Origin: an uncultured Desulfosarcina sp.
Lineage (GTDB): Bacteria > Desulfobacterota > Desulfobacteria > Desulfobacterales > Desulfosarcinaceae
Direction of reading: 5' to 3'
DNA length: 64,000 bases
Assembly: GCA_963674945.2 (NCBI GenBank)
Contig: CAXXWQ010000003.1
Location: 288,001-352,000 of the forward strand
The translations under genes were made by a program, and so were the position numbers. How positions within the stretch are numbered: the stretch's first letter is position 1; each line of letters begins with the position of its first letter. Below, in pieces: positions 12,716-22,283 of this stretch. The notes under the pieces were generated by a model. The model did not search any database. It had not been told where the DNA came from and saw nothing but the letters and a program-made list of their open reading frames with translations.

Positions 12716-13081
12716 GTTGAACTCTCCTTCCCTTGATTGGTTCATTCATTCAAATTTGTATTGTTGATCGAGACGAAAAGAATATCGATTTTTAATCAGA
12801 TCAACGCAGGAAGCGGAGTGTACGAAAAGTCGCAAAAGGCAGATTAGAGCGATGACCGATCGTGAAAATGGGTAACTGCTGCAAGTCACTTGGAATAGGA
12901 AGATTATTGATAAACTATACTCGTTTCGAGGGAATTAAGTCAAACATTATCGCGAAAACAAGCAGATGGAAATAAATGGTAAAATTCTTATAAAAAATTC
13001 CAATCCAACTGATGTAAAATGAACTGATTTTTGTAGAACAATGCCTCATTAATTGCTATACGTTTTTTCCGAGGATGATAA

Positions 13082-13842
13082 ATGAGACCGAAAACGCTTC
13101 CTGCCTTACTCCTGCTCTATTCTCTTCTTTTTCCAGGCGTGCTACTGGCAGCCAATGGCTATTTTCTCCATGGTATCGGTGCTGTGAATGAATCCATGGG
13201 AGGAGCGGCAACCGCGGGAAACCCTCAGGACCTGTTGGGTAGCCTTTACCGCAACCCGGCCAATGCAAATCTTTTTTACGGGTATTTATTCTCAATGAGT
13301 CTGGGCGTCATTATCTCGGATGCAACCGTAGAAAGTTCGTTTTCGACACTGGGAATTACCGGTTCCAGCGATTCCGATGCGGATACAATCCCAGCGGGAC
13401 ACCTGGGGATGGTCTTCAACGGTGATAACAGCCCGTTTTCCTATTATGTTGCCGTTGTCGGTGAGGCTGGTTCTTATTTGGACATTCCACAAAGCGAAAC
13501 CAATCCGATTTTCATTGCTCAGCAAGGAAAATGGGAATCCAGAAAAGTATCCACGACAGCTGGATTGTCAGGGCCGGCTACAACTACGGCAGCAATCCCA
13601 TCGGTGATGACATCACATTCTACAATGTGGGCACACCGCAGCACAACGAGCACCATTTGGCCTTGGGCGCTTCATGGATGGTTTCACGAAAAACGGCTAT
13701 CGATGTTGGCTATACCCATGCTTTTGAAAGTTCGCAATCCGGTTCATGGTATGATGCGACCGGTCAGCCCATTGGGCAGACGAACATTCACTCCTCACTG
13801 GCCTATGATCAAATTTCAGTTGGTTTCACCCATTCATTTTAG
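13082..13842 (+). pseudogene. FadL/TodX/OmpP1 family outer-membrane channel, internally deleted and frameshifted
   Basis: N-terminal NG...MGGAATA...YRNPA hatch motif runs to about 13530. C-terminal strands (RAGYNYGSNPI...VGFTHSF*) continue in another frame at 13531-13842. The middle of the barrel is missing. Confidence 0.85.
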
Positions 13843-13882
13843 TATGGGTACGAGTATAAAAATATTCAAGCATGGAGGTGAC

Positions 13883-14566
13883 ATGAGAGTTATCGTCTGT
13901 TTTCTTCTTCTTACTGTGTTTTCAGCAGAAGCGATCTTTGCCGGACCGGCTGAAGAATTGGGGGAAGAGCTCAAAAAGTGCGGAACGCTAAATCCCAATA
14001 CCGTCCCCGACAACTGGGTTTCCGTTGGCGTCATGACCGGCCAGCACAAATCATGTTTTACTTATATTCCGCCCACTTTTCGCCATATCCCTTTGGGAGA
14101 GGCTTCAAATCTCTATCTTGAGGATGATTATACCAGTGCCTCAATCATCGGGGGTGTGTTACCGCCGGGATATTCATGCGATCTGAATGGTGTGATCAAT
14201 TGGTACGGCGACATTGTGTCCCAGACCGGCTGCATAAACCCGAAGCTGGAATGGTATGATGTCAATCTGTCCAGTTTTGTTTATTCCTGCACCAAGAACA
14301 ATGTCCCTCTGGTCGGCGGTGTTAAGGTTATCGTCGATGGTTCGAACGGGTTAATGTGTAGCGTGAATGTAATGGGATACGCAATGCCGCAAACCGATAT
14401 TAAAAAGACATGTCAGCTATCCCAGATTCTTAACGGTGTGAAGTGTGCTAACCCGCAATATGGTGGCAAGGTCTGTCACAAACCGATTTGCAGCAATAAC
14501 TGCAAAGCATCAGGCCATCGTGGGGGGTACTGCAATTCGTTCGAAGATTGCATCTGTGTCGAGTAA
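13883..14566 (+). CDS. Secreted 227-aa Cys-rich protein with a C-terminal CS-alpha-beta defensin-like domain
   Basis: GGAGGTG RBS, signal peptide MRVIVCFLLLTVFSAEAIFA, 14 Cys in the mature part, ends CHKPICSNNCKASGHRGGYCNSFEDCICVE. Confidence 0.8.
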   Translation: MRVIVCFLLLTVFSAEAIFAGPAEELGEELKKCGTLNPNTVPDNWVSVGVMTGQHKSCFTYIPPTFRHIPLGEASNLYLEDDYTSASIIGGVLPPGYSCDLNGVINWYGDIVSQTGCINPKLEWYDVNLSSFVYSCTKNNVPLVGGVKVIVDGSNGLMCSVNVMGYAMPQTDIKKTCQLSQILNGVKCANPQYGGKVCHKPICSNNCKASGHRGGYCNSFEDCICVE

Positions 14567-14864
14567 AACGATTTCAGAGACATACACAGATCATAAGAAA
14601 ATCATCGCATCCACTATACTTCGTCTAACGTTTTTTACCAAAGTGCCGATCTTCTATAAAGCGTTGAAAAGACCGGCGGTACCAAATGGGATGAAGTAAC
14701 AACGCAATCGCGTTCAGTTACCCATTGAAGAACCACCCGGTCTCGTGTTCACCACTGCAAATGCATCGGTTTTACACACAAAGGCTGCTGCGGTGATCAC
14801 GGGTTACCAATCCAAACCGGAAGATCGACTTGGGCAACAACCATTTATTGACGCAAGGTAAACG

Positions 14865-15785
14865 ATGCAGACGATCTATTCCATAGGAGGAGGCAAAGGC
14901 GGCGTCGGCAAAAGTTTTGTCGCCGCAAGTCTGGGCGCGTTACTGGCCGATCGTGGAAAATCGGTGGTTCTGGTCGACCTGGATTTGGGGGGATCCAACC
15001 TGCACACCTTTTTGGGTATGCCGGCGCCCGAAGATGGATTGAATCGCTTTCTGGACCGAGCCGAACCGCAGCTGGAACGGGTGGCGGTCAGAACGTGTAA
15101 GGACAATCTTTTCCTTATCAGCTCCAACAACTGCTCCATGGAGATTCCCAATCTGTGCCATGCCCAAAAGATCAAACTGATCAACGCCATCCGCGGTTTG
15201 CCCTACGATTATATTATCCTGGACCTGGGAGCCGGCACCAATTTCAATACCCTTGATTTTTTTCTGGTCTCCCGGCAGGGAATTTTCATCTGTACCCCCG
15301 AACCCACCTCCATCGAAAACACGTTCCGCTTCATCAAGGCTGTCTACCTGAGAGGCTTGAAACAGATCGTCAAGGGAAACGGTTTCAAGCGGATGACCAA
15401 GGCGACAGTCACTGACAAGCGGGCCAACGGGCTGAAAGCCGACGAAATCTTCGATCTCGTATCCAGAACCGATCCGGCTCACGTGCTGCTATTGAAAGCG
15501 GCAATCGGCCGGTTTCACTTCAATCTGATCCTGAACCAGTTCCGTCGCAGCGCCGGGAGTACCCTGGGCCCCAAAATTACCGACGTGTGCAATCGTCACT
15601 TTTACTCTCCCTTTGAATTTCTGGGACAGGTCAATTTCGACGAAAGCGTCATCGATGCGATCTACACAAAAAAACTATACTCCGATAATTTCCCGAACAC
15701 GTTGACCGCCATGCAGCTGAAACAGATCGGCAGTCAGCTGCTGGCGCAATCCGCAAGACCCGATAATGACAGACTTTGTGCATGA
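14865..15785 (+). CDS. MinD/FlhG/ParA family P-loop ATPase
   Basis: Deviant Walker A GGKGGVGKS, DLDLGGSNLH, ILDLGAG, TPEPTSIEN. Confidence 0.92.
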   Translation: MQTIYSIGGGKGGVGKSFVAASLGALLADRGKSVVLVDLDLGGSNLHTFLGMPAPEDGLNRFLDRAEPQLERVAVRTCKDNLFLISSNNCSMEIPNLCHAQKIKLINAIRGLPYDYIILDLGAGTNFNTLDFFLVSRQGIFICTPEPTSIENTFRFIKAVYLRGLKQIVKGNGFKRMTKATVTDKRANGLKADEIFDLVSRTDPAHVLLLKAAIGRFHFNLILNQFRRSAGSTLGPKITDVCNRHFYSPFEFLGQVNFDESVIDAIYTKKLYSDNFPNTLTAMQLKQIGSQLLAQSARPDNDRLCA

Positions 15786-20532: not shown

Positions 20533-22283
20533 CCTGAATTTTGCACGCAATTAGCTTTAATTGGCCACGGTGGCCAATTTTTTCAAAATGACGAAGAGTT
20601 CGTTTTCTACTCTAACACATGATCGTTGCCTTTAGTGTGAAGTATACGGTTTGCACGTGTTTCGTTTAACTGCCCATATACAAAGGAAATTGTCGTGAAA
20701 AAAAATTCTTGCATGATATTTTCCCGAGTTACGCAGACGTTCAACATGCCACTTGTCTCCACGGCTTCGGTTTCAATCGCGCTTGATCCAGGAAGTCGAG
20801 AAAATGGATCATCGCGGGCGTTCTCGCATCGTGTACGGAGAACTTGACCTTGTCACGGTTTTGATCTTTGACAACTTTTGCGGCAATGAAAAGCAGCTTC
20901 AACCTGGCGATCCGGATTGTATTGGATGCCACCGTTTTTAAATGCGGCATCTTTTTTCTGTCCTGGCTCATGGCGGCAAGCATCTTGATGTAACGCCAAA
21001 TGTTATACGACAGCACTACAAGTTGAAAGAACGCATAATTGTTTTTGAACTTTGCTGATGGGATGGCCTCAAGCCCTTCACGTTTGGCCTCACCCACCAG
21101 GTTTTCAACGTCAGCGCGTTTATCATACTTGCTGACCACCTCATGGGCCGGCCCTGAAAGGTTCGTGCAGAATATCCGGTATGTATAGTTGTCGTCTTCA
21201 AAGAGTAGGCATTGCACTTGCTGGTTTGAAGTTGATTTGGCTTTCGGTATACGCATGGCCACAAACCGGCACGGGGTATCCCAACCAAGGGGCTGATAGA
21301 CGCAGCTGTTATACTCAACATCCTTGCGTTTCCAGGGCCGATACCAACCTCTCGGATCAAAGGGCGGGTCGCATCTCTTGTTGGCGATGATGAAGTCATA
21401 GCCGCAGTGTCTTGCAGTCTGGACACTTTCCCAGCTCAGGAACTCTCCATCGGCCCGCAGCAGGACTTGGCGAACACAACCGGGTAAATGGGATTTTGTC
21501 TGGAGGATAAAGGCAGCGGTCTGTTTGCCACTGAGTGTTTCACCTTTTCGAAGCTTTCCGATAAGACACTCCCGGGTCTGCTCAATGAAGCACAGCACCG
21601 GACGGTAACCTTTCTTTCCCCGGTTTTTGGTGTTATGGCCTTTCCTGCCTCCTTGCTGATTGCCGTACAGCGTCTCGACGGTGGTGTCGATATCGATGCA
21701 TATCCGGTAATAATTGAAACCCAGTTGTTGCCACACCCGTTCTCGCAGAATGCTCATGAGCTTCTGAAGGGACTGGGCTTGGTTAATTCCCAAGCTGTCA
21801 AGGTATCGCCAGAAGGTGCTCGACACCGGCAACTTTGTCAGTCGGAAAAATCCACACAGCATGGCATCGAGTCGGATGTAGGTAAAATGCCAGATTCTGT
21901 TAAAGCCTATAAACAGTAGCATCAGAAGTCCTGCCACCATCGAATAGTGGCCCAGCTTTGGCTGCCGGACAGGCGCATGATAGGTGGAGTTAAATATTTG
22001 TTTGAAATCGATCAAATCGAAAAATTTGATCATCGCTAAAAGCCCGCCAAATGGACTTAGTTGCTCGCTGCATGTCTCATGCGGCGTAGAAGCGTTGATT
22101 TTTCTGGCCTTGGCAGCGTTTTTCTTAAACCCTTTGTTCTTGCGGTTTTTACGGCTTTTTGATTTACTTGATTTTACCATCTGGGTACCTCCTGTTTTTA
22201 TTGTGGAAGCATGTCACCTCCCTTTATAACAGGATTCCCAGATGGTTTCTTCCTTATTTATGATTCGTCGTGCAAAATTTAGG
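20533..22283 (-). mobile_element. IS1380-family insertion sequence
   Basis: Terminal IRs CCTGAATTTTGCACG / CCTAAATTTTGCACG (14/15); 5-bp target duplication ATATA at 20528-32 and 22284-88. Confidence 0.92.
20741..22180 (-). CDS. IS1380-family DDE transposase
   Basis: IDIDTT...YGNQQG...GYRP, LLRADG, YDKRADVENLVGEAK, TIRIARLKL. Confidence 0.93.
   Translation of the reverse strand: MVKSSKSKSRKNRKNKGFKKNAAKARKINASTPHETCSEQLSPFGGLLAMIKFFDLIDFKQIFNSTYHAPVRQPKLGHYSMVAGLLMLLFIGFNRIWHFTYIRLDAMLCGFFRLTKLPVSSTFWRYLDSLGINQAQSLQKLMSILRERVWQQLGFNYYRICIDIDTTVETLYGNQQGGRKGHNTKNRGKKGYRPVLCFIEQTRECLIGKLRKGETLSGKQTAAFILQTKSHLPGCVRQVLLRADGEFLSWESVQTARHCGYDFIIANKRCDPPFDPRGWYRPWKRKDVEYNSCVYQPLGWDTPCRFVAMRIPKAKSTSNQQVQCLLFEDDNYTYRIFCTNLSGPAHEVVSKYDKRADVENLVGEAKREGLEAIPSAKFKNNYAFFQLVVLSYNIWRYIKMLAAMSQDRKKMPHLKTVASNTIRIARLKLLFIAAKVVKDQNRDKVKFSVHDARTPAMIHFLDFLDQARLKPKPWRQVAC

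Follow-up and report, generated by a model that had tools for sequence, protein, structure and literature searches.

Genetic locus and reading frame

We analysed a stretch of 64,000 nucleotides (the window) from an uncultured Desulfosarcina sp. (GCA_963674945.2, contig CAXXWQ010000003.1, positions 288,001-352,000 of the forward strand). At positions 13883-14566 (+) it encodes a 227 amino acid (aa) long protein whose last 30 residues form a Cys-rich tail. The protein combines a domain with a predicted Mog1p/PsbP fold and a complete six-Cys module of the alpha-beta type stabilized by cysteines (CS-alpha-beta), i.e. the cis-defensin fold. The gene and its parts are as follows:

13874..13879 (+): ribosome-binding site GGAGGT, from the sequence
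13883..13942 (+): probable Sec signal peptide, residues 1 to about 20, without lipobox, judged by eye and by low conservation
13943..14446 (+): predicted Mog1p/PsbP-fold domain, residues 21-188, with eight Cys
14447..14473 (+): short Gly/Pro linker, 9 residues here and 4-9 across the family
14474..14563 (+): CS-alpha-beta (cis-defensin fold) module, residues 198-227, from sequence, profile and structure-model evidence

A first-pass annotation of the window had placed this gene, with its own ribosome-binding site and signal peptide, inside an open reading frame (ORF) of 494 aa. Both features were recovered, the signal peptide as a probable one. The GGAGG core (13874-13878) lies 4 nt ahead of the ATG, and both Desulfosarcina orthologues also have purine-rich stretches upstream of their starts. 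These orthologues, the closest relatives found, are 227-aa proteins of 78% identity in Desulfosarcina variabilis (Dvar_04010) and one uncultured Desulfosarcina. They start at the same Met within open frames of just 239 and 231 aa, and the 494-aa frame is thus not conserved. The signal region shows 21-47% conservation against 81-86% for the mature part, and cleavage would occur at about residue 20. Comparing codons with the two orthologues gave dN 0.09-0.11 and dS 0.8-3.0 (nonsynonymous and synonymous divergence) for residues 21-197; in the tail, the nonsynonymous proportion (pN) is 0.09-0.13, synonymous sites (pS) are saturated, and the identity of 77-83% is similar to that of the N-domain (81-86%). 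The gene is under purifying selection, and computation shows that it is real and hidden inside the longer frame. The 494-aa ORF itself was rejected as a true protein, because its 5' part belongs to a broken FadL-like gene and the orthologues have no such extension.

A PsbP-fold domain with a defensin-fold tail

A search of 1.84 billion protein representatives (E 0.001) returned 32 proteins, which together with three close rows make up the 35-row alignment (A2) used below. The tail of the window protein starts with Cys198, encoded at 14474, and its translation agrees with the spacing read earlier, C-x4-C-x3-C-x9-C-x5-C-x-C. This spacing fits the pattern C-x(2-18)-C-x3-C-x(2-12)-C-x(4-17)-C-x-C of the screen in PMC11561630; its n-loop (x4) is one residue below the x5-12 range quoted in PMC6989792. 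Among the 14,151,716 six-frame residues of the 7.08-Mb host genome, a loose and a strict CS-alpha-beta pattern gave one match each, both at this tail, which is therefore not a chance pattern. A profile of the family tails likewise has one significant place in the genome (E 1e-13; next best 0.27).

The proposed agreement with insect defensins from the second Cys onward was borne out by a gap-free alignment through Cys6 (E 4.5e-4), and a profile from seven tails reached insect defensins at E 2.3e-6. The best matches of the tail among PDB sequences are antibacterial insect defensins. The arthropod defensin family PF01097 (cut-off 20.4 bits) scores 21.4 bits on an isolated 38-aa piece, 16.5 on the whole protein and 19.2 in the genome search, and matches 10 of the 35 family members at E 0.05. 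The core GGYC, which had been compared to insect defensin A, holds for the branch of the window protein but not as a family trait: Tyr is present in 9/35 rows, and within the core only Gly215, which forms the GXC gamma-core ahead of Cys4 in all 35 rows, and Cys217 are invariant. The close likeness to defensin A is thus particular to this branch. A recent transfer from an insect is not favoured, as the family is spread widely among bacteria, its fusion is fixed and only one branch shows the GGYC match.

The predicted structure has the elements expected for a CS-alpha-beta fold, namely a helix (residues 200-209) carrying C-x3-C and the strands 214-217 and 223-226 with C-x-C. The predicted local distance difference test score (pLDDT) is 96-98 across the tail, and the predicted template modelling score (pTM) of the whole model is 0.86. 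On the sequence and the predicted model, computation shows the tail to be a complete six-Cys CS-alpha-beta module. The model also suggests that it is docked on the N-domain, because pTM would not be expected to exceed about 0.78 if signal and tail were both floating.

The N-domain had been described as possibly PsbP/DcrB-like, with eight further Cys. Eight were indeed found in the mature part (residues 33, 58, 99, 117, 136, 159, 177 and 188), plus one in the signal region. The fold neighbours of its model are PsbP, Mog1, MTC28, LpqN, Apa, DcrB, SciW, Tsi3 and TplEi; the structural match to the Mog1p/PsbP-like fold covers most of the domain and lies above background, so that on the predicted model computation shows a Mog1p/PsbP fold. 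Residues 1-196 match no Pfam family at E up to 1, including PsbP (PF01789) and DcrB (PF08786), and neither of these two matches any of the 35 family members at E 0.05. The ESM Atlas returned nothing usable for the window protein, and for the relative P0015 only unnamed clusters and PsbP/DcrB-like neighbours. Identity to Mog1p/PsbP-like proteins (CyanoP, PsbP, Mog1, DcrB, LpqN, MTC28, Apa, SciW/Eag, Tsi3, TplEi) is 4-15%, and the window protein would go beyond them by four added disulfides, an extra N-terminal helix and the defensin-fold tail. Gln181 is the sole invariant polar non-Cys residue in the alignment; thus, there is no evident catalytic set.

Disulfide pairing was deduced from the pattern of Cys losses. 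Cys198 and Cys217 are retained in 35/35 rows and all six tail Cys in 31/35. Cys207 and Cys225 are lost jointly in all three rows losing either; these rows form one clade and therefore represent one evolutionary event. Cys203 and Cys223 are lost jointly in the one row concerned. We infer the bonds 198-217, 203-223 and 207-225, corresponding to the cis-defensin pattern 1-4, 2-5, 3-6. In the N-domain, Cys117 and Cys136 show ten joint losses and one single loss, Cys99 goes with Cys159, and Cys58 goes with Cys188 in one row, while two rows lose either Cys33 or Cys177 alone. The likely pairs are 58-188, 99-159, 117-136 and, by elimination, 33-177. Four relatives (P0027, P0031, P0035, P0038) have lost Cys99 and gained a new Cys a few residues ahead of Cys159, which suggests a rewired disulfide. 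Disulfide formation is plausible in this anaerobe, as a 405-aa frame of its genome (G000:C3:715364-716473; L030, L033) contains VKOR and DsbA/thioredoxin-type domains; DsbB had no match in the host genome. A separate DsbA-family match of 111.7 bits (G000:C4:2034806-2035372; L027) contains one in-frame TGA and possibly encodes a selenoprotein.

Family, known relatives and genomic setting

The Cys-rich tail ends all 32 cluster representatives. When tails are removed and filters are off, 15 of the 32 (17 of the 34 rows tested) remain within E 0.001, so tail-less relatives of such closeness should have surfaced; the fusion of N-domain and tail is shown by computation to be fixed in the family. Complete relatives have 237-436 aa, and the source names of a few of the 30 proteins looked up are Oligoflexia bacterium, Thermodesulfobacteriota bacterium, Myxococcota bacterium and Deltaproteobacteria bacterium. 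A lipobox-like Cys, recognized by a simple pattern, is present in 20 of the 29 rows with intact N-terminus (one extra match was set aside as an internal Cys) and is followed by a long low-complexity tether. P0005 and P0009 have one or two extra N-terminal beta-rich domains, fibronectin-III-like by eye with a weak PF16656 match below cut-off in one of them, and look like surface proteins.

The tail was correctly described as about charge-neutral in the window protein (net 0; 3 K/R, 3 D/E, 2 His). Of the 35 tails, 23 are net negative, 10 neutral and 2 carry +1, and an acidic residue occupies position 221 in 29 rows. Of the 31 six-Cys rows, 30 have a four-residue n-loop, and four-Cys forms occur only in two tips of the mostly six-Cys tree. 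Outside Cys and Gly, pairwise identity is 27% for the tail and 27% for the N-domain. Two family members are incomplete at their loci: L015 (1-587) holds only the end of one and runs into unrelated sequence, possibly as a chimera, and the member at L014 (880-1503) is apparently broken at its 5' end.

The gene is rare among the host's kin: it is present in 3/65 genomes of the host family and, besides the host, in 0/400 sampled genomes of the order and 0/400 of the phylum, with the tail profile likewise at 0/400; these surveys are samples, with scoring limited to each genome's best candidates. Viral contigs as well as phage and plasmid collections gave no match to the gene. An insensitive search, which needed three shared 5-residue words, gave no candidate for a free short relative of the tail.

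The bacterial defensin-like peptides known so far were regarded by the first-pass annotation as small free peptides. Six-Cys forms are already known, many of them deltaproteobacterial (PMC11561630). The class I cis-defensins of that study (Cardoso et al. 2024), the corallosins and kin, have the same six-Cys pattern, short n-loop, GXC core, deltaproteobacterial hosts and signal peptide as the family described here, and the class II xanthusin-1 also shares the pattern. They are, however, free peptides with precursors of 30-130 aa, and that screen filtered out proteins longer than 130 aa, whereas here the module forms the C-terminus of proteins of 227-436 aa, following a PsbP-fold domain. Actifensin and actinomycesin (NF038042) and plectasin-type peptides have the same bacterial six-Cys fold and the 1-4, 2-5, 3-6 pairing, but the window protein scores only 16.1 bits against NF038042 (cut-off 65). 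Insect defensins (defensin A 1ICA, sapecin, lucifensin; PF01097) share the gap-free Cys2-Cys6 alignment; they are cationic and free with a long n-loop, whereas the tail has a 4-residue n-loop, a marginal PF01097 score and a fused position in a mostly neutral or acidic family. AdDLP of Anaeromyxobacter (Zhu 2007), as described in PMC5116183 and PMC6989792, is a deltaproteobacterial defensin-like module as well, but has four Cys with the two helix bonds only, while in the four-Cys variants here bond 1-4 is kept and one of the helix bonds is missing. According to PMC5116183, AdDLP lacks antibacterial activity and was proposed as an ancestor. PMC6989792, a description of actifensin, refers to Dash et al. 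2019 for more bacterial sequences. A potassium channel toxin role was rejected, because the KCXN motif, i.e. the dyad Lys ahead of Cys4 of short scorpion toxins of the alpha-KTx type, occurs in none of the 35 rows. The accessible parts of PMC8538405, PMC12766674 and PMC12881460 contain nothing on fused defensin forms, and no description of a PsbP-fold and defensin-fold fusion was found in the open full-text literature, a coverage that mostly excludes subscription journals.

The gene stands alone: in the window it sits between a MinD/ParA-like gene and the remnant responsible for the 494-aa frame:

13082..13842 (+): broken FadL/OmpP1-like porin gene, from matches to an intact homologue and PF03349; outside the finding

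Its piece 13082-13540 corresponds to residues 1-108 of an intact 432-aa FadL/OmpP1-like homologue and its piece 13531-13842 to residues 305-432; the two sit in different frames and lack the middle part; PF03349 scores 33.3 bits on 13531-13839. The porin gene suffered an internal loss and a frameshift, and its first piece is by chance in frame with the 227-aa gene. The database protein P0037 (494 aa) is a false fusion of this 5' piece with the 227-aa protein. With the queries used, no second copy of the porin gene was found in the host genome. Against an assembly error, contigs of two sequencing runs span 12900-14900 with zero differences, although these may themselves be the source of this DNA; contigs of a third run match parts exactly without bridging the FadL break. 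In run X1, a single low-depth contig connects 12960 with 14618 (90-95% likeness) and has 148 other letters in between. It gives a weak hint at a related strain without porin remnant and without the defensin-tail gene, and could also come from another organism.

The two orthologues lie behind a PF09818 gene (divergent P-loop ATPase), which was not seen beside the window gene, and their downstream genes differ; at the metagenome locus L012, the family gene lies among unrelated genes. In seven relatives with the cache/SatP genes that lie upstream, similarity does not extend past 12786. A consensus scan found no promoter or terminator on the + strand, and the GC content at third codon positions of the gene (0.53; 13th percentile of 2488 long ORFs) gives no strong signal of transfer. 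Elsewhere in the window, a 479-aa ORF (20741-22180, -) resembles a DDE transposase by eye.

Possible roles of the two-domain protein

We consider it fairly probable that the gene encodes an uncleaved, Sec-exported and non-catalytic binding protein rather than a released antibiotic. After export, the protein would carry seven disulfides and remain in one piece, with the knot held on its 4-9 residue linker and probably packed against the Mog1p/PsbP-fold domain. The pair would act as a binder at the cell surface or within the periplasm; in Desulfosarcina it would be soluble, in most relatives lipid-anchored through a long flexible tether, and the knot would provide a rigid, variable surface for an envelope or extracellular partner. 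This proposal follows from the missing features of antimicrobial defensins, the lipobox and tether of relatives, and a tail as conserved as the N-domain. Solved Mog1p/PsbP-fold members mostly bind other proteins. Of the two functions suggested at first, the defensin fold reused as an envelope-binding module fits, whereas a carrier with a lipid II-binding antimicrobial fits poorly.

Several observations weigh against this proposal. The window protein is a non-lipoprotein, has two His in its tail and belongs to the most insect-defensin-like branch, and its role may thus not be that of the acidic lipoprotein branch. The more acidic the N-domain, the more acidic the tail tends to be (Spearman 0.69 over 29 rows that include non-independent kin), which may reflect composition rather than function; moreover, anionic defensins exist. 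Gly-Gly occurs in 26/35 linkers. The paired Cys losses behind the tail bonds each go back to one evolutionary event, N-domain matches took up the fold searches run with the whole model, and the gene neighbours give no hint at a role or partner.

The leading specific form of the binding proposal, which we hold possible though improbable as stated, is an orphan immunity protein or inhibitor: the PsbP-fold domain and the knot would jointly bind and block an incoming envelope-attacking enzyme of competitors or predators, such as a secretion-system effector, muramidase, lipase or protease. Immunity proteins do occur among the fold neighbours, but the top matches are PsbP and Mog1, and identity to the immunity proteins is 5-6%. 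Furthermore, no cognate effector gene was found adjacent to the gene in the window or at L002, L003 and L012.

An antimicrobial function is unlikely. The N-domain would fold, mask and export the knot, and a protease would free it at the linker to act on lipid II or competitor membranes. Such a role would suit a complete six-Cys module with GXC core at the C-terminus, the antibacterial best matches, the PF01097 score of the isolated piece, the frequent Gly-Gly, the fold shared by the N-domain with Eag chaperones and immunity proteins, and two His that could turn the tail cationic at low pH. However, the tails lack cationic character: none exceeds +1, whereas a net positive charge is found in 80% of mature bacterial defensins (PMC8819291). 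The lipid II-linked marks of the plectasin/actifensin group given in PMC12284004, G-aromatic-G before Cys1 and a helix His before Cys3, are found in 0/35 rows each. None of the 35 linkers has a dibasic or R-x-x-R site, and double-glycine leader processing is not favoured, because the export signal is N-terminal, Gly-Gly is internal and 9/35 linkers are without it. Unlike the actinodefensins of Actinomyces, which come with an ABC-transporter cluster, no such cluster was found among the neighbours in the window or at L002, L003 and L012, and no peptidase or immunity gene lies nearby. The tail shows no sign of diversifying selection, the insensitive search found no free short form, and the myxobacterial six-Cys xanthusin-1 was inactive in antimicrobial tests (PMC11561630). 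Equally doubtful is a self-contained effector with a target other than lipid II, in which the immunity/chaperone-fold domain would mask the defensin-fold peptide in one chain until release. If true, a sulfate reducer and uncultured Myxococcota and Oligoflexia would make the first bacterial defensin fused to a carrier, its knot being neutral or acidic, and such fused domains could be the ancestors of free cis-defensins.

There is only a small chance that the tail is a structural cap, i.e. a disulfide-rich lid stabilizing the PsbP-fold domain, with a perhaps convergent rather than inherited defensin likeness. The tail is as variable as the N-domain outside Cys and Gly, two lineages tolerate losing one bond, and 30 residues with six Cys hold little phylogenetic signal; yet PsbP-fold proteins are stable without such a cap, the acidic residue at 221 is retained, and spacing, GXC and pairing jointly fit the defensin rule. 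It is very improbable that the Cys bind Zn or Fe instead of forming disulfides, as the anaerobic host group and the missing DsbB match might suggest, given the export signal, the loss of Cys in pairs as expected for disulfides and the encoded VKOR and DsbA-type domains.

The two-domain PsbP-fold and defensin-fold family is apparently undescribed. Bacterial defensin screens took short precursors, such as the 30-130 aa of PMC11561630, to which defensin-fold domains in larger proteins are invisible. The host genome carries one copy of the gene, and in the family the defensin fold has one fixed partner domain. Several bacterial lineages retain the complete three-disulfide fold as a fixed, mostly neutral or acidic domain, an argument for a use of the defensin fold in bacteria other than an antimicrobial one. 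The family is also relevant to the idea that the fold arose from a four-Cys myxobacterial peptide, since bond 1-4, missing in AdDLP, would be invariant here. With Desulfosarcina variabilis (Dvar_04010), a cultured host exists that is open to direct work on processing and partners.
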